Virus record (IMG/VR): IMGVR_UViG_3300042569_001792
Direction: 5' to 3' (one strand)
Origin: an uncultured virus (IMG/VR IMGVR_UViG_3300042569_001792)
Lineage: Duplodnaviria; Heunggongvirae; Uroviricota; Caudoviricetes
Length of the DNA stretch: 64,000 nt
Made by a program: the position numbers and the translations under genes. Of this stretch, positions 45,038 to 64,000 are shown piece by piece. Position 1 is the first letter of the stretch. Every line of letters starts with the position of its first letter. The notes under the pieces were generated by a model, which had not been told where the DNA came from, did no database searches, and saw nothing but the letters and a program-made list of their open reading frames with translations.

Positions 45038-45038
45038 T

Positions 45039-46423: not shown

Positions 46424-46503
46424 AAATACATAGTGGGTTGATGAGGGAGGGGAATGATAATACTATTAATTGTATTAGGCTTTTTATTTGGTTGGAGGAG
46501 TGA

Positions 46504-46704: not shown

Positions 46705-46720
46705 AAATCCATGCTATATT
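46693..46720 (+). promoter_or_regulatory. Sigma70-type promoter
   Basis: TTGCAG-16-TATATT with extended TG. Confidence 0.5.
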
Positions 46721-46746
46721 GAAACATAAACCTACAATAAAATGAC

Positions 46747-47985: not shown

Positions 47986-48009
47986 CTTTCTGAGAATCCA
48001 TGGTAGAGT
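47982..48009 (+). promoter_or_regulatory. Sigma70-type promoter
   Basis: TTGACT-16-TAGAGT with extended TG. Confidence 0.55.
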
Positions 48010-48040
48010 AACATTAACAACAACAAGACTTCAAAATAAA

Positions 48041-48928: not shown

Positions 48929-48949
48929 TACTAACAAATAAAAAACAAA

Positions 48950-50332
48950 ATGAATACAAGTACAATGCTATCCGACGATCCAATCTTCTCCATTCTTGGA
49001 CAAAAGAAACCTGTAAAGGTAATTGATCCTTCGATTTATACAGAATCATTTATTAAAGCTGTCGCCACAAAGGTAGTTAAAGGCAAGCCGCTAAATGAAG
49101 ATGAATTGACATATTTGTCAATAGACCCATCTAAATGCAAAAATGAATGGGTAGAATTTGTCCGAGATAGATTCCAAGGACATAATATTCCTAAAAATGC
49201 AGCACAGGAAATTTATTCTACTGGCATTGATAATGGTAATGGTAGAAACGGATTGGCTTATACATTAAAATCCAAGATAAATGACCATATTAAAAATAGT
49301 TCGGTATTTTTCGACGAACTAGTTGGAAAGTACCTATACGATTTCTCTGTAGTTCCTTATATTGACAAGAATTGGAATCTTAAACACACAAGTTCCAATA
49401 CAGCCAATCATTATCATAATAATGGGAAACTCCACAATTCCTTAATTGCACGGAATCAAAGTGTTTTCACAGAAAATCCATCTCATTTTAAGGAGCATAG
49501 CCCTGGAAATAATAAAAGTTTTGTCAAACCCACTGGAGAGGCATTTGGCATTGAGATTGAAATGAGCTTCAAACCCAATACTGGCGACCAATATATAGGC
49601 GCGGCAAATAAACTTAACTTCGCTAATTGGGTTCATGACAATTATCCTAATTGGATTTGTGAAAGAGACGGTTCACTTGAAGAAGGTAATAAAGGTAATG
49701 CTGGTTTATGTGGACTAGAATTAGTTTCACCACCACTAACTTTTGACGAAGCTATTACTAACCTACCTATTATCTTGGATAAGGCTCGTTCTCTTGGAGC
49801 TAAGGCATTTATTCCCAATAATGAATTCTTTGGAATTCACGTCACCACAAATCTATACGGGAAGACTGCGACAAAAACGGGCGATAAGATTGTTTACCTT
49901 GTTAATAACAAGATATTTAGGGAGTTTTGGTACGCTTGCGCTAAACGTAACGGACTCGCGATCAATAAATTTGCTCCATTTATGAATGATCTAAGTCTTG
50001 GATCTGCCTTAAAGTCTCAATCAGGCGGTGAGCATTATCGCTCAGTTAATCCAAGGGGTTCTGGCGCTTTAGAGATAAGAATTTTTAGATCAACAGTTGC
50101 ATTCCCAGGAATCCATGCTATACTAGAGTTAGTTAAGATTACGCAAGATTATTGTATGAACGTAACTAATAATTCTAGCCTAGACTCTCCAAGGGAGTTT
50201 ATGGATTATATTAAAGGTAATATGTCTAAGAATCTTGAATCTTGGCTTACTGGTAACGGTGCATTACAAATCCTAGAGATTCTATCTAATCTAAACGTAA
50301 GTAATATCAATAACTCAACATTTGAAGCCTAA
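48950..50332 (+). CDS. Putative amidoligase, copy 2
   Basis: FGIEIEM, ERDGSL, LELVSPP, GIHVT, LEIRIFRS motifs. Confidence 0.85.
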   Translation: MNTSTMLSDDPIFSILGQKKPVKVIDPSIYTESFIKAVATKVVKGKPLNEDELTYLSIDPSKCKNEWVEFVRDRFQGHNIPKNAAQEIYSTGIDNGNGRNGLAYTLKSKINDHIKNSSVFFDELVGKYLYDFSVVPYIDKNWNLKHTSSNTANHYHNNGKLHNSLIARNQSVFTENPSHFKEHSPGNNKSFVKPTGEAFGIEIEMSFKPNTGDQYIGAANKLNFANWVHDNYPNWICERDGSLEEGNKGNAGLCGLELVSPPLTFDEAITNLPIILDKARSLGAKAFIPNNEFFGIHVTTNLYGKTATKTGDKIVYLVNNKIFREFWYACAKRNGLAINKFAPFMNDLSLGSALKSQSGGEHYRSVNPRGSGALEIRIFRSTVAFPGIHAILELVKITQDYCMNVTNNSSLDSPREFMDYIKGNMSKNLESWLTGNGALQILEILSNLNVSNINNSTFEA

Positions 50333-50335
50333 TCT

Positions 50336-51520
50336 ATGACTGGACAATTAATTCATAAACCTATAGGGGTAGAACTGACAAAAGAAAAGTTACAGAAATG
50401 TTTCAAAAACAATGAGCGTTATATATCCGTAGCGTTTTCATTTGAAAAGAACGGTACTAAATACTGGAATAAGTATCAATTTGAAAAACTATCTCTTCTT
50501 GAAGCTGATGATTGTTTTGACAATTTAATTAGTAAAGATAGTGATTGTATTATCTTCTTTAATGGTGCTTACAATATGAAACCAGCGGAGTTACCATTCT
50601 ATGCTATAGAAGCGAGGAAAGATTGGTTTTGGTATGCCTTAGAGGGTATATGCAGTACGTTTCCAACAAGTAGTGAGGGGGATTGTTTTTATAATAATTT
50701 CCTTAAAACTATAAGCCCCGAAGGTGCTTATTCATTATGGAAGAAATTAGGTGAATCAAATAAGATTGGTCGGACTATTGGTATTAAACAAGGTATTGTA
50801 TCAAGATTCGGTACTTGGATAGAAGAGGATGGTATATTCTATTCCAATACAGATCATAACAAAAAACCGTTTGAATATGGTTATCAAGGTACTTCTCATC
50901 GTGGTTATACTACTCCTACAACAACAGCAAAGGTAGACAATATATCTTCATTAAATTATCCAGAAGTTCATACTATTGGCGAGGGGCTTTTAGCAGCAAA
51001 AGCTGGAGAAGGATTGCTAAAATACTATACATTGTTTCATACTTATCCAAACTTGGTTTATATAGACGACGTAACATCTGAAAAGTATAAAAAAGCTGGA
51101 TTAATGCCTATGGATTTTGTAAAGTTGGTTCAAACAGAAGATTCGACAATACACGCTCCAGGTTTAGATTATCTAAAGTCCTGTCTATCTACATATAAGA
51201 AAGTAATCATTACAGTTGTAAGATTTATAAATTGTGAAAAGACCAATAGGACCGAGGCAATTATTGAAATATCTAACGAGCCTAAGATAGAAAAAAATGA
51301 AGAAGTGGTAACTCTTAAACCAGGTCAGAAAAAATATATATTAACAAAGTTAAATGTAGCATTAGTGATGGCGGAAAATGACTGTGATGAAGCCGTCGCA
51401 ATGGAACTAATTAGAGAGGGTCATAGCTTCGCAGACGAATTATCCGCTCGGGAAGACTGTTTTCTTATAGAAAGAGCAAAAGAACATAAAATCACAGGAT
51501 GGATTTCAATCCACTCATAA
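50336..51520 (+). CDS. Degenerate class II GATase-like multidomain protein
   Basis: N-terminus .IHKP.G and GTWIEEDGIFYSNT echo ORF 48041; catalytic Cys2 absent. Confidence 0.45.
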   Translation: MTGQLIHKPIGVELTKEKLQKCFKNNERYISVAFSFEKNGTKYWNKYQFEKLSLLEADDCFDNLISKDSDCIIFFNGAYNMKPAELPFYAIEARKDWFWYALEGICSTFPTSSEGDCFYNNFLKTISPEGAYSLWKKLGESNKIGRTIGIKQGIVSRFGTWIEEDGIFYSNTDHNKKPFEYGYQGTSHRGYTTPTTTAKVDNISSLNYPEVHTIGEGLLAAKAGEGLLKYYTLFHTYPNLVYIDDVTSEKYKKAGLMPMDFVKLVQTEDSTIHAPGLDYLKSCLSTYKKVIITVVRFINCEKTNRTEAIIEISNEPKIEKNEEVVTLKPGQKKYILTKLNVALVMAENDCDEAVAMELIREGHSFADELSAREDCFLIERAKEHKITGWISIHS

Positions 51521-51537
51521 ACTAAACAAAAAAAACT

Positions 51538-52281
51538 ATGAAAATAAAACTAAGAACCCCTCATATCACACCAAGATCAATAAAAGATATCTTCCCTAAG
51601 GTCAAAGGAAAAGGTTCTGTATTGATTCGCTTCGGAGCGTCTAAAAAATCCAAGCAAGAACCCGCTGATATTACTATCAATACACTCGAAGCTATTAAGA
51701 CTAATGCGGATAAAATCCGAATGAAGGAAATTTTTAAGGAAAATGATATTCCTTCTCCAGATTTTGCCCCAAATACAAACGAAGGTCGTCAATACTTTAA
51801 GGACAACAAATACAATGTTGTTTACAAAAAGAGATATCATCATGGTGGGATTGGAATGGAATTGGTCCCACTAGACCAAATTGATAAGTTTGGAGACGGT
51901 CAATATAATGGTGGTATTTTGGAGCGTAGGTTAAATGTAAAGAGGGAGTGGAGAATCCACGCTTGTCCTGCATTAAATTTAACTTTTTCTGTTGAAAAAC
52001 GCAAAAGGTATGATAAGCTACATGAAGTTGTGCGAAACAATGACAACTGCGTATTCAAGGTAAATTTTGAAATCCCTGAAAATTGGAATACTGCTTTAGA
52101 AATGGCTCTAAAAGCTGTTTCAGTAATGAAGCTTGACGTTGGTGCTGTCGATTTAGTATGGACAGGTAAAAACTATTATGTCATAGAAACTAATTCCGGT
52201 CCCGGTATGGGAGATCAAACTTCTCAATGGTATGCAGATACTCTAGCTCAACTAATCGAACATAAGAAAAACAATCAGTAA
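51538..52281 (+). CDS. ATP-grasp ligase
   Basis: DK, K..HHGGIG, EWRIH, GAVD, ETNSGPG motifs. Confidence 0.88.
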   Translation: MKIKLRTPHITPRSIKDIFPKVKGKGSVLIRFGASKKSKQEPADITINTLEAIKTNADKIRMKEIFKENDIPSPDFAPNTNEGRQYFKDNKYNVVYKKRYHHGGIGMELVPLDQIDKFGDGQYNGGILERRLNVKREWRIHACPALNLTFSVEKRKRYDKLHEVVRNNDNCVFKVNFEIPENWNTALEMALKAVSVMKLDVGAVDLVWTGKNYYVIETNSGPGMGDQTSQWYADTLAQLIEHKKNNQ

Positions 52282-52312
52282 ACAAAAAAAACAATAAACA
52301 ACAAATAAAAAA

Positions 52313-53224
52313 ATGAAGAACTTAATTACAATTGGCTCTGATCCTGAAATGGTAGTATTTAAAGAAGATCGGCCTGTGTGCGCTATCCCTGTTGTTGATT
52401 TTCACGGCAAGGAAGATAAGTTGGTTTTCAATGAACATGACACTCTTTACTATGATAATGCTCTAGTTGAGGGTACTATTAAACCAGCGGAGGATGGAGA
52501 AGAACTTGTTCATAGCTTCCGTTCCCTTTATGGTCATAGTTCTGGCTATCTAGCTGAAAAGGGAGCGCAATTAATGGCTTTTGCTTCCGTTAATTTCGAT
52601 GCAAATGAATTACTCCAATTCCCTAAGGCTCTGGAATTTGGCTGCGATCCAGAAGTAGATATGTGGGAAAATGTATTATGCCCCCCTCCATTTTGTGATC
52701 CTATGTCCGGTTTTCGTTCTGCCGGTGGTCATATTCACATTGGTCGTAAAGATTATAAAACCGCTGATGAAAATAGCTTTCTTATGAATTATGAGAGTAA
52801 ATCTCATTTCACAAGGGCGATGGATCTAATTGTCGGAACCGCCCTTACTGCTATTGAAAATGATCCATCTGCTCCCAAGCGTAAAGAACTATACGGTAAA
52901 GCAGGTCGCGCTCGTTTTGAACTCCCTTATGGAGTTGAATATAGAACTCCTTCTAATGGATGGACTGCTATGCCAGAAAAAGTAAGATTAGTCCATGATC
53001 TTACAATGTTTGCTGTTGACTTCTTCGGAAACAATGCTACAGTATTTGATGGAGGAAAGGAGTATCCATTTAATACAGTTATTGATATTATCAATAGTGG
53101 GGACCAAAAGGCGGCTATGGAAATTATTCCATCACTTCCACATAAGGAATTTATTCCTAGACTAATGGAACTAGCTAATCTAAAACATGAGCCGCGAGTA
53201 GCCGTAAATTACGGAGGATTCTAA
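52313..53224 (+). CDS. phiEco32-like COOH-NH2 ligase type 2
   Basis: IGSDPE, DN..VE, FGCDP, RSAGGHIHIG, LYGKAG, YGVEYRTPSN motifs. Confidence 0.92.
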   Translation: MKNLITIGSDPEMVVFKEDRPVCAIPVVDFHGKEDKLVFNEHDTLYYDNALVEGTIKPAEDGEELVHSFRSLYGHSSGYLAEKGAQLMAFASVNFDANELLQFPKALEFGCDPEVDMWENVLCPPPFCDPMSGFRSAGGHIHIGRKDYKTADENSFLMNYESKSHFTRAMDLIVGTALTAIENDPSAPKRKELYGKAGRARFELPYGVEYRTPSNGWTAMPEKVRLVHDLTMFAVDFFGNNATVFDGGKEYPFNTVIDIINSGDQKAAMEIIPSLPHKEFIPRLMELANLKHEPRVAVNYGGF

Positions 53225-53252
53225 TAATTAAACAACATAACTGAAATATAAA

Positions 53253-54008
53253 ATGAAAATCTCAATTAATCTAAATAACGGTGGTTTTGCCCAGATTTAT
53301 AGTTCGGGGCCAGTATTCGGCTTTGTATCAGAAAAGGGGGAGCATTGCCACCCTTTTTATTTCTGCAAAGATTTTATGAATGATGCTATTGCAGCACAGG
53401 TCAACGGTAAGAATATGGGTATCTATGGATTTAATCATGATCCAAAAAAGCATCCTAATCTTGACCTATCAAAAACACGGATTGTCTTTTCAAATAAAAA
53501 TGATAAACAAATGGCGGATAGAATTCCAGCGATTCAGGATATCTTGAATCAAGCCTGTAAACTACTAAAACTTACAAAATGTAAAGTTGAAAATGTAGGT
53601 ACTCATGGAGATTATAAAGATGTATTATATATAACAGGTTCTAAAGATTGGATGGTTGGCGGACCAGCAATGTCCCTTTTAACTCTATTAGTTAGGGTCG
53701 GGGCAGTACACACACCTGGAAACAACATTATGAATACACTAGAGTCTGTAATGAAGGGTGAAATTAAGCCTTATGGTAGTAATGATGCGAGTTATATCAA
53801 ATCATCTATCGACGGAATTAAGTTCTTGTTTGAAAATGGATTTTCCGCCTTAGGTGATATGTCTAAGAATTACGATCCAAATATCTCAATTGGAACTATT
53901 CATAATACTGGTATTGTTGGATATTCAAATACCCTACGCAATCCAAAGTCAACTAGCAATTTCCCACATTGGGCAGAATATATTGAAAGTAAAAAAGTAA
54001 CAGTTTAA
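53253..54008 (+). CDS. Conserved hypothetical protein, paralog of 58020 and 58777
   Basis: CKDF, TGSKDW...P..SL.TLL.R, IHN.GI motifs. Confidence 0.65.
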   Translation: MKISINLNNGGFAQIYSSGPVFGFVSEKGEHCHPFYFCKDFMNDAIAAQVNGKNMGIYGFNHDPKKHPNLDLSKTRIVFSNKNDKQMADRIPAIQDILNQACKLLKLTKCKVENVGTHGDYKDVLYITGSKDWMVGGPAMSLLTLLVRVGAVHTPGNNIMNTLESVMKGEIKPYGSNDASYIKSSIDGIKFLFENGFSALGDMSKNYDPNISIGTIHNTGIVGYSNTLRNPKSTSNFPHWAEYIESKKVTV

Positions 54009-54031
54009 TCGAATCTAAAATAAAATAAAAT

Positions 54032-54691
54032 ATGAAAAATCTATTTGTAGTTGGTGGTAGTAATGGGTACGCTAATTGGGTGCTTCCTCTTGGATTCCAG
54101 ATAACCCAAAATGCAGATGAAGCTGACCTATTTCTTTTTACTGGTGGGGAAGATGTAAATCCTGCTTTGTATAATCAACCAGTCGGAAGACATACTTATT
54201 TCACAAATAGGGATGTTCTTGAAAAGAAGTATTTTGAATATGCTCTAAATGCCAATAAGCCAATGATGGGTGTTTGTCGTGGGTTGCAATTTCTAACCGT
54301 AATGGCCGGGGGTAAATTAATTCAAGATATGAATCACCCAGGATATCATGAGTTTGTAGCTAATACAGGTGAACGTATGTATATTAATTCGCTCCATCAC
54401 CAAATGGCTTTAGTCGATCCGAGTGTTACTAAATTAGTTGATGGCGAGGATTATGAATTAATCGCCTGGACTGAACGACTATCTAAATATCATCTTGACG
54501 GACATGATTTGAATTATGGCTTCCCGGGTAATTTTAAAGAGCCGGAGGTTCTATTTTTCCCTAAGATTAAAGCCTGGGGAGTGCAAGGCCATCCAGAAAT
54601 GTTATTTAGTGGGAATAGAGGTGGGATGGAATTTAAGGATACAATTTCATTTCTGCAAAATTCACTAACTAACTGTTTAAATCTAAAGTAA
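54032..54691 (+). CDS. Class I glutamine amidotransferase / peptidase C26, copy 1
   Basis: GGEDV, GVCRGLQ, NSLHHQ, QGHPE motifs. Confidence 0.92.
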   Translation: MKNLFVVGGSNGYANWVLPLGFQITQNADEADLFLFTGGEDVNPALYNQPVGRHTYFTNRDVLEKKYFEYALNANKPMMGVCRGLQFLTVMAGGKLIQDMNHPGYHEFVANTGERMYINSLHHQMALVDPSVTKLVDGEDYELIAWTERLSKYHLDGHDLNYGFPGNFKEPEVLFFPKIKAWGVQGHPEMLFSGNRGGMEFKDTISFLQNSLTNCLNLK

Positions 54692-54695
54692 AGCT

Positions 54696-55154
54696 ATGCC
54701 GCTTGATATAGATAAATTGTATAAAGATTATTTAGAAAAACCTTTCTTTGCACAGGATATTCGAGGCAGTATCTACTTTTGTGATTTTATGAAAAGAAAT
54801 ATTAACGCAAAAGGAGATTATTGGCTAGTAGATAGTTATGATGTTTATGGTAGATGTGCAAAGTTTACTATGAATTCGGATTATTTAGATCTTTATACAA
54901 AGCCATTAATTATCTCGAATAATAAACATAATAATATGCTTTTACTTGCGGATAAATGTGGTAATATCTTATTAACAACAAAAGAGGATTTTAAAGATGG
55001 TGCTTATACTGCTTTATATTATGTAGATATAGTTGATAGTAAAGAATATAAAGTTGGTGATACTGATTATTATACATTTTGTCCAAATGGGGAATCAGGA
55101 TTTGAAATATTGCCACCGGCATTTAAGATAAGGGTAGATTTTAACCATAAGTAA
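54696..55154 (+). CDS. Hypothetical protein
   Basis: ORF; C-terminal ILPPAFKIRV motif shared with four other ORFs. Confidence 0.55.
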   Translation: MPLDIDKLYKDYLEKPFFAQDIRGSIYFCDFMKRNINAKGDYWLVDSYDVYGRCAKFTMNSDYLDLYTKPLIISNNKHNNMLLLADKCGNILLTTKEDFKDGAYTALYYVDIVDSKEYKVGDTDYYTFCPNGESGFEILPPAFKIRVDFNHK

Positions 55155-55159
55155 ATCAA

Positions 55160-55510
55160 ATGTCAGAAACAAAAAGAATAGCAGTTTACGGAACCTTAAA
55201 AAGAGGTTTTTATAATTACGATAGATTTAATCATTTTTACGAATTTAAGTTTGTAGGATCAGAACGGATCAAAGGATTTTCTCTTTATGATTTGGGTCAT
55301 TATCCAGCGGCAGTTGAATCAGATCCAGAAAACGAAATTACAATAGAAATCTTTGATGTTTCGCCCGCATGTTATAAATCGTTGCATGAAATGGAAATTT
55401 CAGCAGGATATGTAAAAAAAGAAGTTGCAACATCTCATGGCTGTGCTATACTATGGGCATACGAAAATGAACCAAGATACAGCAAGCTAATAGAATCAGG
55501 AATATACTAA
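55160..55510 (+). CDS. Gamma-glutamylcyclotransferase (AIG2-like)
   Basis: VYGTLKRG, YP, L..ME...Y motifs. Confidence 0.9.
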   Translation: MSETKRIAVYGTLKRGFYNYDRFNHFYEFKFVGSERIKGFSLYDLGHYPAAVESDPENEITIEIFDVSPACYKSLHEMEISAGYVKKEVATSHGCAILWAYENEPRYSKLIESGIY

Positions 55511-55511
55511 G

Positions 55512-55919
55512 ATGTTTTTTGAATATCATCAGAATTTATATGTTGTATGCTCTTATATTGATTATAGAGATAAAACTATTAAGTCTGCTTTAGATGGTCA
55601 GTCTATGTCAATAGAGTGCTACATGATTTCGAGAATGACAGTCTCGCCGACTTATGTATCAAGACATGATGTAGAAAGACATATAGAAAAATTCAATAGC
55701 TATGTAATTCCAGATATCGAAAAGCCTAATTTAGTCTTAAATAAAGATGGACTTTTAGCCTTTATGATTAGATGCTTCACAACAAATCCAAGTCAAAAAA
55801 CTTTAATAGTTTTAGATCCGAATATTAATTCTAATCTACGGGTAGGTCAAAGAATAACACTAGATACATCATCGTTACAAAGAGTCCCCAATAAACTAAA
55901 AATTGAAATAAAAAAATAG
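55512..55919 (+). CDS. Hypothetical protein
   Basis: ORF; C-terminal RVPNKLKIEI. Confidence 0.55.
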   Translation: MFFEYHQNLYVVCSYIDYRDKTIKSALDGQSMSIECYMISRMTVSPTYVSRHDVERHIEKFNSYVIPDIEKPNLVLNKDGLLAFMIRCFTTNPSQKTLIVLDPNINSNLRVGQRITLDTSSLQRVPNKLKIEIKK

Positions 55920-55920
55920 T

Positions 55921-56622
55921 ATGAAACAAATCTCAATCGTAGGAAATGTAAATGGAGAAGATCAACTATGGCTCAACCGGGCTTATGTTAATTACTTTTC
56001 CCAATATGGAAATGTATCTATTGTCGATCCATTCTCTAATGAAGTAAAAGAAACCGATCTATTAGTTCTACCAGGTGGTAGTGACGTTAATCCAGCAAGA
56101 TACAACACTCCATGGCTGCCGATTATCAGTCTTCCAAATCGGGCTTACGAGTATTTTGATGAAGTAATACTTCCTCATTATGTCAAGTCAAATACTCCTA
56201 TTTTTGGAATTTGTCGCGGTCTTCAAACACTTAATGTATTGTTTGGCGGTACGTTAAAGCCACATTGTAATGAACCAACATCACATTCAGATGGAAGTAT
56301 AGCGCATTGGGTAAAAGACGTTGAAACAGAGGAGCTATTTAAATGCTCGTCGAACCATCACCAAGCAATTGACCAATTAGCTGATGGATTCTTAATCACT
56401 GCGGTTGGATACCCTATTACTAATGACAATAAAAAGGGAGCTATACTTGATCCAAAGTCTAAGCAGCTAGAAATTGAAGGGATTCGCCACGCAAATCTAC
56501 CTATTAGAGCAGTTCAATTTCATCCAGAGAAGAATTTTAATGGAAAGTCTTGTATCAAGATTAATGACAAGTTTGTTGAGCCGCAAATACTAGAACTTCT
56601 TAACTATCAAAAACCACAATGA
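55921..56622 (+). CDS. Class I glutamine amidotransferase / peptidase C26, copy 2
   Basis: PGGSDV, GICRGLQ, NHHQ, QFHPE motifs. Confidence 0.92.
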   Translation: MKQISIVGNVNGEDQLWLNRAYVNYFSQYGNVSIVDPFSNEVKETDLLVLPGGSDVNPARYNTPWLPIISLPNRAYEYFDEVILPHYVKSNTPIFGICRGLQTLNVLFGGTLKPHCNEPTSHSDGSIAHWVKDVETEELFKCSSNHHQAIDQLADGFLITAVGYPITNDNKKGAILDPKSKQLEIEGIRHANLPIRAVQFHPEKNFNGKSCIKINDKFVEPQILELLNYQKPQ

Positions 56623-57203
56623 GACCACCTTATTTAACATTTATTCATTATAAATATGATGACAACGAAGACTTTAAAAGAGTAACTTGTTTTGCTGGCA
56701 TGGATCTATCCTCACTAAAATCTGTTAGATTTTATATAGATGATTGTTTAGGTCGATCAGATGTAGATAAATATTTTGATTTTCTAAAATCCGTATTTGA
56801 TATTGAATTTGGATTTGTATTTAATACAGCCCCAAAAATCGTTAAGAACGGGAATATGGAAAATGTAGTAGATGTTTCTTTGGACTTATCTTCATATAGT
56901 CGAGTACAGTGTCTAACTATACTAACATTACTAAGATATGTTCAGGAATTTCCCGAGATAGTGGAAAAAACAACAGAAAATGAGGCGAATTGGGAATCTT
57001 TTAAAGATGGCCATAAACACTGGAATGAAATTAGAAAGGGTACGGAAACAAAAGTTAAGTACGATAATGCTTATGGACATGGAATAGCTTGTACTGACTA
57101 TACCAAAGGTCATTTCATGCAAGATAATTTCTGTTCATTAGAAAAGTTTAAATTAAACTTTAGTAAAGCTCTAACAGGGTATGTTAAAAACCTTTTCCAA
57201 TAA
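56619..57203 (+). CDS. Hypothetical protein
   Basis: CFA, LTLLRY..E.P, GHG motifs. Confidence 0.55.
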   Translation: MRPPYLTFIHYKYDDNEDFKRVTCFAGMDLSSLKSVRFYIDDCLGRSDVDKYFDFLKSVFDIEFGFVFNTAPKIVKNGNMENVVDVSLDLSSYSRVQCLTILTLLRYVQEFPEIVEKTTENEANWESFKDGHKHWNEIRKGTETKVKYDNAYGHGIACTDYTKGHFMQDNFCSLEKFKLNFSKALTGYVKNLFQ

Positions 57204-57210
57204 AAAACTC

Positions 57211-57238
57211 TTGACTTCTTTAAAAACTGTGCTATAAT
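57211..57238 (+). promoter_or_regulatory. Sigma70-type promoter
   Basis: TTGACT-16-TATAAT with extended TG. Confidence 0.75.
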
Positions 57239-57286
57239 TACAAATCGAAACAATCCACAACAAACCAACAATAGAAAAACAAAAAT

Positions 57287-57616
57287 ATGAATAAGACACT
57301 AACTACAAAAATCATCAATAAAAACGGTAAGCGGCTTGGATTTATGGTCGCTACAAAAAACGAGAATAATGAAGTCCTGCTTGGATTTTCGCTATGCTGC
57401 AAGAAAGATAAGTTTAATTATGATCGCGGTCTTCATATCGCTACAAACCGCTCTTTCAAGGGAGTAACAAAATTCCCTCATAGTCTAAAGAGTAAGGTGG
57501 CTAATTTCCATGGTCGTTGTGTTAAGTATTTTAAGGATGCTGCGGTGCCATCTATGGAAATGTTTACATTTGTAAATACGAAGGAAGAAAACGAAGAAGA
57601 AAAACAAGGCGAATGA
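57287..57616 (+). CDS. Hypothetical phage protein
   Basis: GFSLC...DKFN...G..IA..R motif. Confidence 0.6.
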   Translation: MNKTLTTKIINKNGKRLGFMVATKNENNEVLLGFSLCCKKDKFNYDRGLHIATNRSFKGVTKFPHSLKSKVANFHGRCVKYFKDAAVPSMEMFTFVNTKEENEEEKQGE

Positions 57617-58017
57617 AATTAAATATCTCTGTCGAGGATCGACTTACTGCGGGCATAATCCTATTCGGCCCGGAAGTTAAGCCTATAATGGATAACGAAT
57701 TTGATATTAAAGGCTCCTACGCTTTTATTAGAAATAACCAGTTATTTATCATTGGTATGCACGTTCGTCCGTATAAAATGACGGATGGATTCAGTAAAGT
57801 CGATCCTCGCAGGGATCGTAACTTAAAAGTTACAAAATCCGAACTAAGATTCTTAAAAGAGAAACATAAGAAAGGTTTCTCGATTATTCCAGAATCTGTG
57901 GAATATATTAAAGGCAAGTTTAGAGTGATTCTAGCTATTGGCAAACCATTGAAAAAATGGGATAAAAGATCAAAGGAAAAGGAAAGAGAATCCGAAAAAG
58001 AAATGAAGGAGTATTAA
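57613..58017 (+). CDS. smpB: SsrA-binding protein SmpB
   Basis: AGIIL.G.EVK, SYA.I, HVRPY, DPRRDR.L, GFSIIP, K.WDKR..K.RE motifs. Confidence 0.88.
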   Translation: MKLNISVEDRLTAGIILFGPEVKPIMDNEFDIKGSYAFIRNNQLFIIGMHVRPYKMTDGFSKVDPRRDRNLKVTKSELRFLKEKHKKGFSIIPESVEYIKGKFRVILAIGKPLKKWDKRSKEKERESEKEMKEY

Positions 58018-58019
58018 TT

Positions 58020-58775
58020 ATGGTATATTTTTTTCAAGTTGATAAGGACGGTGATGTTTTAAATTGGGATGATGTTGAATGGGATGATTGTGATGATTCA
58101 GATCATCTAAAAGAAGATAGTTGTAGAGCTAGAAGGCACCAACTTATCTTTAGATATATGAATTCTAATAGTAAGAAACTTATAAAGACCAAAACAGTCT
58201 TGGGTATAACAACTAATAGCTCAGAAGCGGATATTAAAAGATGTGTCAAAATTCTTAATGAGTTAGAGGAGAAAGTTGGTTTAAGTAAAACAACTTATAA
58301 AAAGTCTGCAATAAGCAATAAACAGTTTGTAGTTAAAGGCGAGGTCTGGAAAAGATATATCTTTACTGGAAGTAAATTATGGAGTATTGCGCCGCCAACT
58401 CATAGCCTTTATACGTTACTAATTAGATTGTTGGTCGATGGTGGTGAAAAAATGCCAGCTAATTTTAAGATAGGGGTATCAGAATTACTATATGATTTTC
58501 GTTTTTTGACTGACCACTGTGAATATAACAAGATCTATAATGAAATTATCCCCTTCACCTCTAGTATTGGAGAAATATTCGGGTCTAGTATAACTAGAAA
58601 TTACAAGATAAATATTAATAATTTGAATGATGAGGATATCTATAATTTTGAATGGGATATTCATAATTTTGGAATTCAATCATTTTTGTATGAGTATTAC
58701 CCAGACGACAATGAGAAATTCACAAAAAAAGCAAAAAAATGGTTCTCTAAATATAAACAAATAATAAAACAATAA
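58020..58775 (+). CDS. Hypothetical protein, paralog of 58777 and 53253
   Basis: CRARRH, GSKLWSIAPP.HSLYTLLIR, IHNFGI motifs. Confidence 0.7.
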   Translation: MVYFFQVDKDGDVLNWDDVEWDDCDDSDHLKEDSCRARRHQLIFRYMNSNSKKLIKTKTVLGITTNSSEADIKRCVKILNELEEKVGLSKTTYKKSAISNKQFVVKGEVWKRYIFTGSKLWSIAPPTHSLYTLLIRLLVDGGEKMPANFKIGVSELLYDFRFLTDHCEYNKIYNEIIPFTSSIGEIFGSSITRNYKININNLNDEDIYNFEWDIHNFGIQSFLYEYYPDDNEKFTKKAKKWFSKYKQIIKQ

Positions 58776-58776
58776 C

Positions 58777-59502
58777 ATGGACACTTACTTTTACTACTTT
58801 ACAATTGACAAAGATAACGGAATTCTGCCTTTTTACTACAGTGATAAAGAATACCCAGGCTTAAATAAAAATACCTGCCGGGCAAGGCGGCATGAAATTT
58901 ACCATTACTATTTCAAAAATGATATTAAAGATGTATCAATTAAAGATACTCTGGTTGGTATTGGAACGCCAAGTGTGAATTTAGAAAATGTGATTTCCAA
59001 TCTACATAGATTTGAAGATATCGTTGGAATAAGGAGATCTAAAATTGAAAAATTTGAAAATGGTGGCTCCCCACTTACTCCAGATTGTGTTCAATATAAA
59101 GTTACGGGTAGCTATTGGTGGGGAATTGCCCCGCCGATTCATAGTCTTTATACTTTGCTAATTAGACTTTTAGTTAGGATTGAACAAAATATTTCAGGTA
59201 AGGTATTTAATATTGGTGAAGACGATCTTGATTTTATTATTACAAATGATAAAGCGGAGTATGATAGAATTAAATCGCGTATCCTACCATTAATGAAAAA
59301 CGTAAAAAAGATCTTTCCTAAAAATAAGAAAGAGAATTATGTTTATTCAACTAACGAAAGTGCCCAAGGTAACATACATAATTTTGGTATAGAAATTTTT
59401 ATGAGAGATAGTCCTCCTGCATATTTCTTAAAGGAGGAAAGAGATAAAATAAAGGAATTACAAGATAAATTTAAAGAAGTTCTTGACTTTCATCAGAAGT
59501 GA
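58777..59502 (+). CDS. Hypothetical protein, paralog of 58020 and 53253
   Basis: CRARRH, GSYWWGIAPP.HSLYTLLIR, IHNFGI motifs. Confidence 0.7.
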   Translation: MDTYFYYFTIDKDNGILPFYYSDKEYPGLNKNTCRARRHEIYHYYFKNDIKDVSIKDTLVGIGTPSVNLENVISNLHRFEDIVGIRRSKIEKFENGGSPLTPDCVQYKVTGSYWWGIAPPIHSLYTLLIRLLVRIEQNISGKVFNIGEDDLDFIITNDKAEYDRIKSRILPLMKNVKKIFPKNKKENYVYSTNESAQGNIHNFGIEIFMRDSPPAYFLKEERDKIKELQDKFKEVLDFHQK

Positions 59503-59510
59503 TGTATAGT
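59483..59510 (+). promoter_or_regulatory. Sigma70-type promoter, probably leaderless transcript
   Basis: TTGACT-16-TATAGT; ATG 5 nt downstream. Confidence 0.65.
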
Positions 59511-59515
59511 ACAAC

Positions 59516-59878
59516 ATGTCAAGAAAAGATCATCTACAGAAACTAATTTCGTGGGCCAAACATCATAAAGAGTTTTTGCAAATGAGACGGCAGTTTCATG
59601 TTGCCGCAATTTATAAAAGAAATAAACTAATATCTATTGCGACGAATAGTTTGAAAAGTCACCCATTAATGGCTGGATTTTATCCAGACTATCCAGGAAT
59701 GGGATTGCACGCAGAACTTGCGGCGATTATTCAAGCTGGAATTGACGGCGACTTCACGAAAAAAAGTCTTTATGTGATTAGAATTGACAATAATGGAAAT
59801 CTGGCTAATAGTAAACCGTGTATATATTGCCAGAGATTGATAGATAAACTAAAATTCAAAAGTGTAGAACACTCATAA
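59516..59878 (+). CDS. Cytidine/dCMP deaminase-superfamily protein
   Basis: HAE and KPCIYC zinc motifs. Confidence 0.85.
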   Translation: MSRKDHLQKLISWAKHHKEFLQMRRQFHVAAIYKRNKLISIATNSLKSHPLMAGFYPDYPGMGLHAELAAIIQAGIDGDFTKKSLYVIRIDNNGNLANSKPCIYCQRLIDKLKFKSVEHS

Positions 59879-59887
59879 ATTTAACAC

Positions 59888-60264
59888 GGGGGTGAATGGA
59901 CAGATAATAAATACATACAAATAAGAACGCAAGCAGTGGATGATTCGTTGGCCACTTAAAAAATCGAATCAAAAAAGAAAAGACGAAACAAACATTGATA
60001 GTCTTATGGCACAGGCTGAAGCGATCTTCGCTAATCCAGATGCCTATCTCGCCGAAAGCGAGGTTTCCGCTAAAACCGAGGCTTACGCTTTAGTTTGAGT
60101 GAAATAAATCTAAAGAAATTTCTCTTTATACTTTAGATTATTTAAAAGAGAACCCGCCTAGAAATAGGATATTCAGACATGAAGAAAAAAATGTAAACGC
60201 TTGTAATTCGGTCTTATAGTTTTGTTTATTAAAAGGGGGGTTCGATTCCTCCCCACCTCCACCA
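59888..60264 (+). ncRNA. ssrA: tmRNA (SsrA)
   Basis: GGGGGTG/CACCTCC-A-CCA acceptor with G3:U, T-arm GGTTCGATTCC, helix 2 pairings, PK1 (agtgg/ccact, tgattcg/cgaatca), tag frame ending YALV-stop; smpB nearby. Confidence 0.9.
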
Positions 60265-60278
60265 ATTTCAAAAACAGC

Positions 60279-60306
60279 TTGACTTTCTGTAAAGCTGTGG
60301 TATAAT
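60279..60306 (+). promoter_or_regulatory. Sigma70-type promoter, probably leaderless transcript
   Basis: TTGACT-16-TATAAT with extended TG; ATG 6 nt downstream. Confidence 0.75.
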
Positions 60307-60312
60307 ACAAAC

Positions 60313-61203
60313 ATGCACAAATTATCTCTCTGTTGTATCCATAATGGTCTGTCCAAACAAGGCCACTCATTTAAGACAATGACCTTTAAAAAGTTTGCTT
60401 CTATGAATAGAAGTATGGCTATTAAAGAATTATCGTCTATTTATCTAAATAATCTTTCTGTAACTTGGCGGATTATTAATGAGTGTGTCGCTAATGGTTG
60501 GCATTATAGGGTAAGTAGTTCATTATTTCCATTACTTACATTTCCAGAGGCAAGTATTTGTCTTGAAGATATGCCCGGCTTTAATCAGATTCTAGTTCAA
60601 TTAGAAAGAATTAGAAATACAGTAGTTAGCTCTGGCATTAAACTATCCTCTCATCCAGATCAATTTAATGTTTTAGCCTCTTTTAATCCTAAAGTAGTTA
60701 AAGCTACAGTTGATGAGCTTAGTTTCCATGGGTGGCTACTGACTATGATGGGCGGTGAATCGAACTATTCCTGCCCAATTAATATTCACATGAATACATA
60801 TAAAGGCGACCTAAAGGATATCGCCCGTAGTTTCAGAGATAATTTCAATCTACTTGACGATAGTGTCAAAAGTCGTTTAGTTCTCGAGAACGAAGACAAA
60901 CCTAATTCTTGGTCAACTAAAGAGCTTATTGACTGTCACGATATTCTAAAAGTGCCAATTACATTCGATAATCTACATTGGCAACTTAATCAAAAAGGTA
61001 TGTCCGAGGAAGATGCCTTTCATTCTTCTTATCAAACTTGGGATACAGTTCCAAGATTTCACTTTAGCGGCAGCGAGGGTAAATTAAATCCTCGGGCGCA
61101 CGCAGATATGCCAAGTAATACTCCAAATAATTTTGGGCGTGATGTTATATGGGATGTAGAATTTAAAGCTAAGGAACTTGCACTTAAATGGATTCAAAAG
61201 TAA
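60313..61203 (+). CDS. uvdE: UV-damage endonuclease
   Basis: YRVSS.LFP, HPDQF, NIH, LENED, FDNLH, HAD, EFKAKE motifs. Confidence 0.92.
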   Translation: MHKLSLCCIHNGLSKQGHSFKTMTFKKFASMNRSMAIKELSSIYLNNLSVTWRIINECVANGWHYRVSSSLFPLLTFPEASICLEDMPGFNQILVQLERIRNTVVSSGIKLSSHPDQFNVLASFNPKVVKATVDELSFHGWLLTMMGGESNYSCPINIHMNTYKGDLKDIARSFRDNFNLLDDSVKSRLVLENEDKPNSWSTKELIDCHDILKVPITFDNLHWQLNQKGMSEEDAFHSSYQTWDTVPRFHFSGSEGKLNPRAHADMPSNTPNNFGRDVIWDVEFKAKELALKWIQK

Positions 61204-61631
61204 ATATAAAAGGGGGGGAGATTTTGTATAATCCACATTCTAATTTATTTTCTATGTATATAGAAAAAATGAATGGGTTTTATAGAATGATATCATTATT
61301 TGATAAGCAAGATGAAAATTCTCTTCATTTAGAAATAAATCACCAATACACTATCAGTAAATATCTCTTTGATGATCTATTAACTCTAAGTGAGATTAAA
61401 ATTCCAAAGAATATTTATCTCTCCAATCATGCAGATAAGGGGATTTATCTTGGATTTAATAAGAATACAAACAATGCTTATTTAATAGCGATTAGTTGTC
61501 CGGGAAGCCCACACCAATTAAATTATACAGTAAATCTTTTTGATAGATACATATTACATATAAGTAGTAGAAATTTAATTTCTGATTATTATCAAATTGC
61601 GCCAAAGAAATTCAAATATAAAATAAAATGA
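61188..61631 (+). CDS. Hypothetical protein
   Basis: ORF; C-terminal IAPKKFKYKI. Confidence 0.55.
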   Translation: MDSKVNIKGGEILYNPHSNLFSMYIEKMNGFYRMISLFDKQDENSLHLEINHQYTISKYLFDDLLTLSEIKIPKNIYLSNHADKGIYLGFNKNTNNAYLIAISCPGSPHQLNYTVNLFDRYILHISSRNLISDYYQIAPKKFKYKIK

Positions 61632-61831
61632 CCTTCAAAAGATTAAAAAGATTGTTGACAAGTGCTAAAATATGTGCTATGATACCAGTAGACAAAGCAC
61701 CGAAGGAAATAAAAGAACTTTATCCAGAATCTAAAGGATTTATTATCTGCCCAGTCGGTGAAGAGATAGATGAAGCGTTTAAGAAAGAATCAACCGTTCT
61801 GGATGGATTAGCAATATGGGGAGCAAAGTAA
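61628..61831 (+). CDS. Hypothetical protein
   Basis: ORF; contains an internal TTGACA-17-TATGAT. Confidence 0.45.
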   Translation: MTFKRLKRLLTSAKICAMIPVDKAPKEIKELYPESKGFIICPVGEEIDEAFKKESTVLDGLAIWGAK

Positions 61832-61832
61832 A

Positions 61833-62234
61833 ATGAGATTAATCAAAAAAAAGGGTAGTGTCTATCTCATAGATTGTCTTGAGTATGGATTAAATATAAG
61901 TAAACATACCTTAGTTTTAAAACAAGGTAAAGACGGTTTATTTAGATTAGTTTTATTTAGTCGCAAACAATATGAAGATGTAGAATATGTCCCAGAATTG
62001 ATAATATCAAACGATCAATGTGCAAATTTTAGGATTTGCTATAGTATCCACGGAAGCGTTCTTCTTATATTTAAAAGTCCAGAAGGAGAATTGAAAAGTA
62101 TAACTTTTTTTGAATGTAAAAGTTACACAAAAGAAGACCACCATTTAATTGTGAATAAATTGATGGATACTAATGCAATGACAGTTGCGCCAAATAAATT
62201 AAAGGTGAGGATACCAATACAAAATAACCTATGA
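61833..62234 (+). CDS. Hypothetical protein
   Basis: ORF; C-terminal VAPNKLKVRI. Confidence 0.55.
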   Translation: MRLIKKKGSVYLIDCLEYGLNISKHTLVLKQGKDGLFRLVLFSRKQYEDVEYVPELIISNDQCANFRICYSIHGSVLLIFKSPEGELKSITFFECKSYTKEDHHLIVNKLMDTNAMTVAPNKLKVRIPIQNNL

Positions 62235-62689
62235 TTGATAAAATTAAAATTGGAGATATGTTTACATATTCTGATTTGAAAAATATATACATGATTACTC
62301 ACTTAGATTTAATATCTAAGAATATACAGGCAATGTATATAGGACATTCAGAAAAAGGTAAATATACATTAAAGAGCATACCTTATGTTATGAGTCCAGT
62401 TGCGGCAATGATTTTTTGCAAAAAAGGAGAAGTTGAAATGGAAATAACTCAGGCCGAAAGAGAATCACAGTATGAAATACCACATATTTTGGATAAAAGA
62501 TACCCCAAAATAGTATTCTATAAATTTAATGGAGATCCATTTCTAATGGTAAAAAATGCTCATCAAGGAAGCCGAATGTATAATATGATTTCATTATCAA
62601 ATCCAGGAAATAATTTCATCTTGCCGGAGTCTCGAATGAACGACTATGAACTAGCACCATGTAACACAACATTAAAAATAAAAAGCTAA
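62231..62689 (+). CDS. Hypothetical protein
   Basis: ORF; C-terminal LAPCNTTLKI. Confidence 0.55.
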   Translation: MIDKIKIGDMFTYSDLKNIYMITHLDLISKNIQAMYIGHSEKGKYTLKSIPYVMSPVAAMIFCKKGEVEMEITQAERESQYEIPHILDKRYPKIVFYKFNGDPFLMVKNAHQGSRMYNMISLSNPGNNFILPESRMNDYELAPCNTTLKIKS

Positions 62690-62695
62690 TATACT

Positions 62696-62920
62696 ATGTA
62701 CCAACCACCCACACCAGATAATCTAATACAACAACGGACAAATATTGACAAAGAAAGTCGCATAATAATCTGGCTTACTGGATGCCTATATAAAAATCAA
62801 AAAGTGCGGACAACAAGTAAAAAGATAGCCGAGCTTTTTAACAAAAGGGGCTGGGATATTGAGGAACTAGGCGAAGAAGGTTATAATATAAAATATCCAG
62901 CAAAGTTTAATTTGGATTGA
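62696..62920 (+). CDS. Hypothetical protein
   Basis: ORF in array. Confidence 0.5.
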   Translation: MYQPPTPDNLIQQRTNIDKESRIIIWLTGCLYKNQKVRTTSKKIAELFNKRGWDIEELGEEGYNIKYPAKFNLD

Positions 62921-62921
62921 T

Positions 62922-63437
62922 ATGAAAAAACACGAAGACTATATCACCCATATTTCAAATAAAGAAGACGCTCCATATTTATATGGGAAGCATTTTCCCG
63001 TAAATATGCGTTTATTCAAAACATCGCCAGAATACAAAGCAATTATTCTGAGTATGTGTTCTTATATTAGAGAGCTTTGCCTAGATGTTAAAGAGGGGTA
63101 TAAAAAACCCCATGGAATGAGTTCAGCAAATGCTGGATTAGCATTTAATATCATCGGTATCACAAGAAATAGAAATTCTAAACAAGAATATTGTGAAATA
63201 ATGATAAATCCAGAAATTCTTGATTGCTCTAAAGATATGGTAGAATCTATGAGTAATTGTGGAAGTATTAATTTAGAAAAGCCTATTAAGATAAAAAGAT
63301 ATTCAGAAGTTAAAGTGGGATATTTCAATGAAAACGGAGAATATCTTTGCAAGATATTTGATAGGGAGAATGGCTCTCTTACTATTCAACATGAAATAGA
63401 TCATAATTTAGGAATACTGATAACTGATAGAGTTTAA
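62922..63437 (+). CDS. def: Peptide deformylase-like protein
   Basis: MINPEI, C.S, KRY, QHEIDH..GILI.DR; motifs 1 and 2 divergent. Confidence 0.8.
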   Translation: MKKHEDYITHISNKEDAPYLYGKHFPVNMRLFKTSPEYKAIILSMCSYIRELCLDVKEGYKKPHGMSSANAGLAFNIIGITRNRNSKQEYCEIMINPEILDCSKDMVESMSNCGSINLEKPIKIKRYSEVKVGYFNENGEYLCKIFDRENGSLTIQHEIDHNLGILITDRV

Positions 63438-63496
63438 AAATAAAATTAGTTAAAAAAAGAACTTGCACTCCTCTCGTTCTGTAGTAATGTACTCAC

Positions 63497-64000
63497 ATGA
63501 CAAAGTATCATCAAGCATTCAATTCAGTAGTTGGTCAAGACGAAGCTAAACAATTACTATCTCTCTCCATTCAGTCGGGCGTAAATAATGGGCGGATGTT
63601 GTCGCCTCTTATTGAGGCACCAGCAGGAGTCGGTAAAACAAAAATTTCAGACGCTTATATTCAAGCATTAGCGGATGAAGGTATTCCCACTCTACGTTAT
63701 TCTTCCCCGGAAGAATTCAGATCAGAGGGCGAGGCTTATGACCAATTTGTTCATACTATCTGTAACGAAGAAAAATACGCTATCTTTATTGATGAAATCC
63801 ACCTGATTGATAATCGTAAAACAGTCAGAATGGAAAGAATTAAGGCTTTTCTTATGAAAGCTTTAGATAAAGAAAACAATGGTAAGCCAATCCGATTCGA
63901 TGAAGACAATATTGTCTATTTTGATAGGAGTCGCGGAAGTATCGTTCTTGCAACTAACTTTCCGCATAAATTGGATTCAAGCGGAGCGTTTCAAAGTCGC
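63497..64000 (+). CDS. RuvB-like AAA+ ATPase (3' truncated by window, not in ORF track)
   Basis: F..VVGQ, Walker A APAGVGKT, Walker B FIDEIH, LATN, SR. Confidence 0.75.
   Translation, partial: MTKYHQAFNSVVGQDEAKQLLSLSIQSGVNNGRMLSPLIEAPAGVGKTKISDAYIQALADEGIPTLRYSSPEEFRSEGEAYDQFVHTICNEEKYAIFIDEIHLIDNRKTVRMERIKAFLMKALDKENNGKPIRFDEDNIVYFDRSRGSIVLATNFPHKLDSSGAFQSR

Follow-up and report, generated by a model that had tools for sequence, protein, structure and literature searches.

Trans-translation relies in bacteria on two components, the ssrA-encoded transfer-messenger RNA (tmRNA) and the protein SmpB, and both have been reported from phages. Huge phages with tmRNAs and SmpB are listed by Al-Shayeb et al. 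(2020), their translation genes being thought to sustain the machinery of the host (PMC7162821); ssrA has been described by Hudson et al. (2014) in Bxz1-type mycobacteriophages and in phage G, in an account that places smpB on bacterial chromosomes and one plasmid only (PMC4131195); and Buchholz et al. (2022) counted by ARAGORN 402 phage genomes with a tmRNA among 18,146 (PMC9004378). The roles proposed for phage ssrA are the upkeep of hijacked translation or the tagging of proteins (PMC4131195, PMC12484599, PMC9004378). Here we compare with these systems a locus in a 64,000-nucleotide (nt) stretch of DNA from an uncultured virus of the Caudoviricetes (IMG/VR IMGVR_UViG_3300042569_001792), this whole stretch being hereafter referred to as the window, in which an smpB gene (57613..58017, plus strand) and a 377-nt ssrA gene with encoded CCA (59888..60264, plus strand) lie, as stated by an original prediction made from the sequence, less than 2 kb apart; the spacing is 1,870 nt, on the same strand and within one 3-kb block, and the two are matched by their Rfam and Pfam families. 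Both genes are real, and with scores lying far above the family thresholds chance is not an issue. The reading that we consider fairly probable is that the phage encodes a complete trans-translation module which is selectively maintained, whose RNA is detected in RNA libraries and whose partners are co-adapted. Phages with both partners are a known kind; novel here are the close linkage of the two genes, the apparent Verrucomicrobiaceae origin of the RNA, a rebuilt tmRNA elbow with a matching change of the SmpB patch, an SmpB clade devoid of near-universal residues, a very long tag that does not end in LAA and the failure of ARAGORN to call the RNA gene.

When 50,697 phage records were searched by tblastn, SmpB-like matches, all below 60% identity, were found in 57, which include 15 Lak phages, five uncultured huge phages and 18 unannotated faecal fragments; several of the SmpB-bearing "phage" records are prophage ends (Staphylococcus, Klebsiella), with the match at the end of the record. 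No classic tmRNA phage is among the 57 and no SmpB-like match was obtained in the Mycobacterium and Bacillus phage records, so that the Bxz1-like phages and phage G (in whose paper the word SmpB is absent) must rely on the SmpB of their hosts. The premise that phage tmRNAs usually come without smpB is in keeping with this count and with that of Buchholz et al., while the combination cannot be called unprecedented, since Al-Shayeb et al. list both components and a survey of co-occurrence found both genes in LR756504.1 and in Prevotella phage Lak-A2 (MK250019.1), the two among five huge-phage records tested by Rfam in which a tmRNA scores above threshold (65.2 and 58.2 bits, respectively). These two phages resemble the window in having both genes in one genome and in the non-consensus D-loops of their tmRNAs. 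However, their genes are ~260–280 kb apart instead of sharing a 3-kb block, their SmpBs retain the N.KA..Y and RKLL motifs whereas the SmpB of the window belongs to a distinct short clade, and, unlike theirs, the tmRNA of the window appears traceable to the Verrucomicrobiaceae. The Bxz1-like mycobacteriophages, Bacillus phage G and marine phage Melnitz, on the other hand, resemble the window in that a complete ssrA is carried by a phage of lytic type. Among the huge phages, the tmRNA of LR756504.1 belongs to a small tRNA cluster, with 12 nt separating it from one of the tRNA genes (region 1501-2114, minus strand), and has both a T loop, which reads UGUCGUAA, and a D-loop, which lacks the GG, off consensus. 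In LR756501.1, a further one of the five records tested and a 735-kb huge phage with an SmpB-like gene as well, a weak tmRNA match of 21.1 bits abuts a group I intron of 96.1 bits (716888-720231, minus strand; matches at 1272-1503 and 1501-1844 of the extracted stretch), and this RNA looks like an intron-form tmRNA.

Compared with bacterial trans-translation (7ABZ/7AC7/6Q98, 4V8Q, 2CZJ), the locus has the same two components, and its RNA the same alanine-identity domain, helix H2, pseudoknot PK1, tag frame and further pseudoknots, whereas the D-loop lacks C18 and is shorter by two to three bases, the linker reads AAAA, the T stem has 6 base pairs (bp) and the tag, of 37–38 residues, ends in YALV. 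The RNA fits the tmRNA model over its whole length, the match to Rfam RF00023 extending over model positions 1-374 with 65.6 bits (gathering threshold 47; E 2.3e-23), on a scale on which 11 complete Verrucomicrobiales tmRNAs reach 150–176 bits. Its acceptor stem of 7 bp, GGGGGUG/CACCUCC, has the G3:U pair and is followed by the discriminator A73 and the encoded CCA, which together should confer the alanine identity that had been predicted. The Rfam alignment likewise bears out the altered D-loop and linker: the former (59898-59905) reads GGACAGAU against a consensus GGaUUCGAC and the latter, ahead of the T arm (60231-60234), AAAA against GGAC, the GG of the D-loop and the T loop UUCGAUU being retained. 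By this alignment and by comparison with other tmRNAs, the 5′ part of the domain (59888..59905, plus strand) consists of the acceptor strand (59888-94, with G3:U), the shortened D-loop AAUGGACAGA and the U that opens H2, and the 3′ part (60231..60264, plus strand) of the AAAA linker, the T stem (GGGGGG/CCUCCC, loop UUCGAUU), CACCUCC, A73 and CCA. Relative to E. coli ssrA, whose numbering is used here, A15, G19, A20 and A334 are retained, U16>C, U17>A, C21>U and G333>A are substituted and C18 is absent, while H2 is kept with A-U pairs. The T stem has six pairs because a G at the place of C335 pairs an extra C lying between the T and acceptor stems; the spacing between T loop and discriminator is 13 nt, as compared to 12 in E. 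coli, in four Verrucomicrobiales tmRNAs and in Lak-A2. The RNA thus departs from the standard tRNA-like domain, which has a 5-bp T stem and a stem-less D-loop with conserved UUCGAC. When mini tRNA-like constructs were folded by minimum energy, information was gained on the T arm only. A putative second pseudoknot, paired from sequence and folds as AUCUAAAG/CUUUAGAU and UUCUCUUU/AAAGAGAA, occupies 60108..60152 (plus strand) and has on its 3′ side two small hairpins in the places of PK3 and PK4.

The tag frame (59985..60098, plus strand) starts with the resume codon GAA at 59985, which aligns with the GCA of Verrucomicrobiaceae genes (Rfam has GAC 59982, one codon earlier and in frame), is preceded by A and G at -4/-3, as in E. 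coli, and ends with TGA (60096-60098) in an H5-like hairpin. The encoded tag of 37–38 codons, with the hydrophobic end AYALV, exceeds the known lengths of 8–35 residues (PMC3968760); the tags of Verrucomicrobiaceae have 9–10 residues and end in LALAA. A variant of the RNA, on a metatranscriptome contig, displays 10 substitutions, eight of which are in the tag, three of these at synonymous third positions (Q>E, Ala synonymous, Tyr synonymous, Ala synonymous, E>N, S>T); since these changes are partly synonymous and the other open frame gives a basic peptide, the 59985 frame is favored. That other frame, which follows AUAGUC, an upstream motif as in E. coli ssrA, was rejected, the changes of the variant contig being non-synonymous there. 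The tmRNA of LR756504 has a tag of 24 residues with an Asp resume codon, and large-phage tmRNAs may be characterized by long private tags.

The protein partner has 134 residues, with a short N-terminus, RNLKV in place of RKLLL, the sequence GKPLKKWDKR and a 15-residue basic tail after DKR. It matches Pfam PF01668 with 98.3 bits (cut-off 27), its residues 4-132 corresponding to profile positions 10-138 of 143. With an AlphaFold2 model (predicted local distance difference test, pLDDT, 83.7), all 21 Foldseek matches at E≤0.001 are SmpB, and superposition on the T. thermophilus protein (4v8q) gives a VIA Z of 17.6 and a root-mean-square deviation of 1.9 Å over 115 residues, model residues 1-116 lying on residues 8-126 of that chain and, in E. 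coli SmpB, starting from residue 18-19. As modeled, therefore, the SmpB fold is complete but for its first residues; barrel, central loop, DKR and basic helical tail are those of bacterial SmpB, and Tyr55 is retained as well. After the SmpB chains, the model finds in the PDB the N-terminal domains of Cas12f-type nucleases with Z ~7–8, a likeness probably due to a shared barrel arrangement only.

Of 1.84 billion representatives searched with HMMER, 2,805 matched at E≤0.001, and a single one of these, P0006, reaches E≤1e-30; this protein is 53% identical, also has 134 residues and is encoded on a 154,672-bp contig. Five closer relatives (80–99% identity, 134–135 residues) came from a word-index search, and the short N-terminus and the P/L substitutions are common to them and to P0006. 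The aligned set comprised the seven members of this clade and 75 other best matches, altogether 82 of 155 sequences, much longer or cut ones being excluded. The claimed lack of the N-terminal segment is confirmed by this alignment, the Asn of the N-[KR]-[KR]-A motif being present in 74 of the 75 others and in none of the seven; at least 10 residues precede the Tyr24 column in the others, four in the clade (eight in P0006). The Tyr24 column has Y/F in 72/75 others and Ile in 6/7 of the clade, that of His22 H/F/Y in 58/75 and L/I/E, respectively; Lys89 (66/75) is Asn in all seven, Leu91 (74/75) is Lys in six and Cys in one, and Gly132 (64/75) is Pro in all seven. With respect to the bacterial protein, the SmpB of the window hence lacks N-K-K-A and has His22>Leu, Tyr24>Ile, Lys89>Asn, Leu91>Lys and Gly132>Pro. 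GKPLKKWDKR is present as had been noted, but as a replacement that leaves the length unchanged (E. coli G132→P, K133→L) and not an insertion, and the DKR is kept in 7/7; the tail that follows has 15–16 residues in the clade against a median of 20 (range 13–25).

Do the changes of the two partners meet? The elbow of the tmRNA, formed by the D-loop and the variable-loop linker, is the SmpB contact (PMC3968760, PMC8363625), so that the original prediction was right in placing the altered RNA elements where SmpB binds. Cryo-electron microscopy of the E. coli complex showed that G19, held by C18, stacks on the conserved Leu90-Leu91-Leu92 patch and that Trp122 is accommodated in a pocket of A15, U17 and A334; His22 touches A1493 and subsequently A790, A86 and G87 ahead of the resume codon have Tyr24 between them, and the SmpB tail hinges at Gly132 (PMC8363625). 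In the phage pair the Leu patch reads RNLKV instead of RKLLL while the tmRNA has lost C18 and has U17>A. This change of the SmpB patch facing the D-loop goes beyond the original prediction, which had paired the D-loop with the N-terminal loss; the latter cannot be tied to it because the missing segment contacts the decoding center, through His22, and the bases ahead of the resume codon, through Tyr24, i.e., the ribosome and the message-like part. That both faces of a single contact have changed is the strongest point in favor of co-adaptation, and to judge from the two sequences SmpB and tmRNA are probably co-adapted.

Might the pair be strictly orthogonal, the phage SmpB binding the phage tmRNA only and the host SmpB not serving it, so as to constitute a private rescue channel? 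The interface changes on both sides (loss of C18, U17>A, GGAC>AAAA, RKLLL>RNLKV), the location of the genes in one same-strand block and the fact that the 5′ tRNA-like part has diverged far more than PK1 are what such a pair would lead one to expect; yet G19, A20, A15, A334 and the GG of the D-loop are kept, so that host SmpB may still bind, the changes belong to one lineage that allows no statistics, and LR756504 combines a deviant elbow with a canonical SmpB. Strict orthogonality, though plausible, is held to be unlikely. In a literature search of a limited library no published account was found of an orthogonal or co-adapted phage SmpB–tmRNA pair. As to further members of the lineage, no second tmRNA of this clade was recovered: the phage records gave no blastn match either to 56000-62000 or to the tmRNA, and scans of viral contigs with the SmpB of the window, with the proteins P0005 and P0006 and with 3′-end and PK1 patterns gave no match; a metagenome scan for relatives yielded no more than a 1.2-kb smpB-bearing contig and a single distant locus.

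The descent of the RNA is indicated by PK1 (AGUGG/CCACU and GAUUCG/CGAAUC; 59935..59970, plus strand), which lies upstream of the resume codon and is identical to the tmRNAs of Verrucomicrobiaceae, five of which were aligned, at 36–37 of 41 positions (88–90%); the first 20 nt of the tRNA-like domain, on the other hand, are identical at 8–10 (40–50%), and over the full length 149–167 identities are found in ~390–403 columns. In stem 1 of PK1 CGAGG/CCUCG has become AGUGG/CCACU, i.e., both sides have changed in two compensatory pairs and the stem is kept. A 27-nt PK1 pattern with two free positions, for which 185,579 species were scanned with a single genome each, occurs at 12 loci, all in Verrucomicrobiales (Prosthecobacter, Brevifollis and metagenome-assembled Verrucomicrobiaceae genomes), and all 12 are tmRNAs of 106–176 bits, the lowest being cut by a contig end. 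Abundant bacterial contigs in public data match 59938-59976 only and then continue with ordinary tags; similarly, when positions 44001-64000 were compared by blastn with 145 genomes of this family, matches were found in 82, in 81 of which they concern PK1 only. In the tmRNAs of Verrucomicrobiaceae the D-loop is the canonical GGUUUCGAC, the linker reads GGAC and the T stem has 5 bp. Because PK1 is near-identical while the normally most conserved elbow is changed, the sequences point to the phage tmRNA being a descendant of a Verrucomicrobiaceae-type tmRNA in which PK1 was frozen and the elbow rebuilt; PK1 also makes a host of the Verrucomicrobiaceae lineage probable.

This pattern bears upon another explanation, namely that the genes are two independent supplements, each boosting the host pool together with the host partner, and that their divergence reflects AT-drift and fast phage evolution. 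The many translation genes of huge phages, thought to sustain the host machinery (PMC7162821), are a precedent for this, the wide separation of the two genes in LR756504 and Lak-A2 indicates that linkage is not required, and the entire tmRNA is AT-shifted, with a guanine-plus-cytosine (GC) content of 38% as opposed to 53–56% in the Verrucomicrobiaceae. Drift, however, leaves unexplained how PK1 could stay so nearly identical beside a changed D-loop and how near-invariant SmpB positions came to change in a gene under strong selection (see below), nor does independence account for two genes of different histories being side by side. Mere supplementation is therefore, like strict orthogonality, considered unlikely.

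The different histories follow from the SmpB of the window being no closer to those of Verrucomicrobiaceae (29–32% identity to five of them) than to others (up to ~43%). Between smpB and its 93%-identical homologue on a related contig (L001) 29.5 synonymous and 10.5 non-synonymous differences were estimated, corresponding to a ratio of non-synonymous to synonymous rates (dN/dS) of 0.066; such strong purifying selection means that smpB is a working gene, not a relic. The latter notion would hold that the tmRNA is an attP-type leftover of integration into ssrA, with smpB as a passenger and neither acting for the phage. Prophages do often integrate in ssrA, whose commonest neighbor is smpB (PMC4131195), and, as said above, prophage ends do account for several of the SmpB-bearing records; but the gene is complete from its 5′ end to the CCA, no integrase family was found among the 75 open reading frames (ORFs) scanned with Pfam, the window holds no second copy of the tmRNA 3′ end (one match at ≤3 mismatches) and the tmRNA, but not the SmpB, resembles that of Verrucomicrobiaceae. 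Together with the selection on smpB, these facts make a relic extremely improbable.

Reduced versions of either component are known. The SmpBs of endosymbionts (Carsonella, Hodgkinia, hemoplasmas, Tremblaya; PMC4131195) have, like the phage protein, lost functional segments while keeping the barrel, but in their decaying genomes what has gone is the central loop, the C-terminal tail or the two together, or else both termini as far as the barrel, whereas the phage SmpB retains loop and tail, has lost N-terminal residues only and is under strong selection. Mycobacteriophage DS6A carries a tmRNA derivative whose possible target is the host system; it consists of the tRNA-like domain only, without tag frame or SmpB, unlike the RNA of the window, which is full length with a conserved frame. 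Since the DS6A RNA inhibits tmRNA in E. coli (PMC4131195, PMC11915505), interference has also to be weighed, i.e., that the pair or one of its members blocks or diverts host trans-translation, titrates SmpB or tmRNA of the host, or takes up stalled ribosomes and adds a tag not read by host proteases, so that truncated products would escape destruction or the quality control of the host would be put out of action. The SmpB would suit this role in lacking the decoding-center His22 and the frame-selection Tyr24, and so would the tag in ending in YALV and not in LAA, the sequence recognized by ClpX (PMC3968760). Nevertheless, a decoy needs neither a complete tag frame that is conserved, shows synonymous changes and ends in a stop codon nor an SmpB with DKR, Tyr55 and tail, and interference is regarded as very unlikely. 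A more ambitious proposal is that of a truly private channel, in which the phage SmpB, devoid of the N-terminal decoding-center and frame-selection residues and rebuilt in its G19 patch, would recognize only the remodeled tRNA-like domain (no C18, AAAA linker, 13-bp acceptor/T stack) and add a 38-residue non-LAA tag unread by ClpXP-type recognition of the host, thereby keeping host ribosomes cycling when nucleases cut messages or tRNAs and leaving to the phage the decision on the fate of the products; the two paralogues and the small deaminase encoded between smpB and ssrA may belong to the same pathway. Taken as a whole this proposal is decidedly doubtful.

Among 24 sequencing runs listed for the stretch, 17 lake or freshwater DNA runs contain at least half of its words, five of them being possibly the source. 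Public contigs were compared with positions 57200-60400. A freshwater metatranscriptome run has a single 363-nt contig on 59901-60262 with a depth of 23.6, and an RNA-Seq-labelled run from a different study has an identical 200-nt contig on 59922-60119, the depth in both runs being zero in the flanking bins (59554-59874 and from 60303). Over the protein genes the two RNA libraries have nothing or low-identity scraps, the uncovered part proving nothing. These contigs fit a stable RNA of tmRNA size, and contigs as such cannot show ends, strand or level.

The reading in which the two genes form a functional, co-adapted module would thus comprise the following elements. The tmRNA would have kept what is known to be needed, i.e., alanine identity, CCA, T loop, the D-loop GG with G19/A20, H2, PK1, the -4/-3 bases and the tag frame, while its SmpB-facing elbow was rebuilt and its tag grew to 37–38 residues ending in YALV; SmpB and tmRNA would have adapted to each other; and during infection the pair would rescue stalled host ribosomes under phage control, the released products being marked with a tag differing from that of the host. 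As had been proposed originally, such phage-controlled rescue could be directed against host nucleases.

Several facts weigh against this reading. Co-adaptation rests on one lineage, since there is no second tmRNA of the clade in which covariation of the elbow could be followed, and the deviant D-loop and T loop of LR756504, paired with an SmpB of canonical N-terminus and RKLL, imply that a changed elbow need not require a changed SmpB. The protein stays below the NCBIfam equivalog cut-offs (TIGR00086, 98.3 vs 119.1; NF003843, 97.9 vs 130), and the lost or changed His22, Tyr24, Gly132 and Asn matter on the E. coli ribosome, so that function could be weakened or altered. As for the RNA, of the checks suggested at the outset the Infernal (Rfam) and SmpB profile searches gave matches, but the tmRNA routine of ARAGORN called no tmRNA in the whole window, where the only genes that the program reports are tRNA-Gln (22446) and tRNA-Cys (30711); furthermore, an acceptor/T stack of 13 bp instead of 12 might disturb delivery by EF-Tu. 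The RNA evidence consists of contigs from two runs, in which DNA carry-over is possible. Finally, the host is deduced from PK1 only: the phage has a GC content of 30–35%, against 53–56% for the tmRNAs concerned, and no spacer-like match was found in the 145 family genomes, for which 20 of the 64 kb were searched, the one match other than PK1 being weak and 36 nt long.

The block to which both genes belong is flanked by two promoter-like sites and comprises, in front of ssrA, a 109-residue ORF, smpB, two paralogues and a small deaminase-like gene. The upstream site, TTGACT-16-TATAAT with TG (57211..57238, plus strand), and one of the same type that closes the block ahead of a UvdE gene (60279..60306, plus strand, also with TG) each match 11/12 consensus positions and are leads only, since promoter-like sites in the scan were in total not above chance (20 observed vs 17.5 expected). 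The 109-residue ORF (57287..57616, plus strand), the stop of which overlaps the smpB start (ATGA), has no family in Pfam, PHROG and NCBIfam scans, and a homologue also precedes smpB on contig L001. Between smpB and ssrA two genes in tandem, of 251 (58020..58775, plus strand) and 241 amino acids (58777..59502, plus strand; own model poor, pLDDT 0.35), are paralogues (32% identity, E 1e-31) for which Pfam, PHROGs, NCBIfam and a structure atlas give no family; on L001 the start of the first of them is likewise found 3′ of smpB. They are followed by a cytidine/dCMP-deaminase-like gene of 120 amino acids with HAE and PCxxC motifs (59516..59878, plus strand; PF00383, 27.6 bits, cut-off 25), which ends 10 nt ahead of the tmRNA 5′ end.

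The window as a whole (19,089 of the 22,176 residues in ORFs of at least 70 amino acids on the plus strand) is likely phage DNA. It has replication and nucleotide genes of phage type (ribonucleotide reductase, UvsX-like recombinase, DnaB-like helicase, primase), along with thymidylate synthase, DHFR, a sigma factor, an RNA ligase and a polymerase of PolIII-alpha type that an intein and a homing endonuclease interrupt; neither a capsid nor a terminase gene was found in its 64 kb. The nearest virus record, a 41.6-kb IMG/VR fragment rated ~20% complete, lacks both smpB and ssrA in this fifth or so of its genome; its size and rating lead to an estimate of ~200 kb. The window is probably part of a large lake-water phage.

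Other genes of the window deserve mention in their own right. The polymerase (26066-29932) is encoded by two ORFs, the first ending in an intein-splicing match, with a GIY-YIG endonuclease gene (27834-28733) on the opposite strand between them; a GDP-mannose 4,6-dehydratase gene of 661 codons (7253-9238), with a central LAGLIDADG match that is probably an intein, belongs to a sugar-modification cluster (2324-9238); and a TnpB/IS605 OrfB-type gene (40769-41980, minus strand; Cas12f-like TNB domain) is among the few on the minus strand. Just upstream of the smpB block, a cluster (48950-56622) encodes an amidoligase, a phiEco32-like COOH-NH2 ligase, a gamma-glutamyl cyclotransferase, a RimK-like ATP-grasp protein (PHROG "ribosomal protein S6 glutaminyl transferase") and two class-I glutamine amidotransferase/peptidase C26 proteins. 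A metallophosphoesterase gene (39973-40674) lies 2 kb from that of the RNA ligase (42486-43121; PF09414, 110.6 bits), and the two could be an RNA-repair pair, fitting a defense against host RNA nucleases. A translation-linked gene, that of a peptide deformylase (62922-63437; PF01327, 60.8 bits), is found 2.7 kb downstream of the tmRNA. No private protease for the tag was seen in the 64-kb window, an AAA gene (63497-64000) considered as a Clp-type candidate having been rejected as apparently of RuvB or clamp-loader type.

Because ARAGORN misses this tmRNA and the cited phage surveys used ARAGORN, phage tmRNA–SmpB pairs are probably under-counted. The PK1 match offers a lead to the host or donor, within the Verrucomicrobiaceae, of an uncultured lake phage, and the locus would be a natural test of how much SmpB and the tmRNA elbow can dispense with, near-universal residues (the N-terminal Asn, His22, Tyr24, Leu91 and Gly132) being absent from a gene under strong selection. 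Were the pair mutually specific, it would constitute a ready-made orthogonal system of ribosome rescue and tagging, and it would be evidence that large phages take over the quality control of translation and not only the supply of tRNAs.

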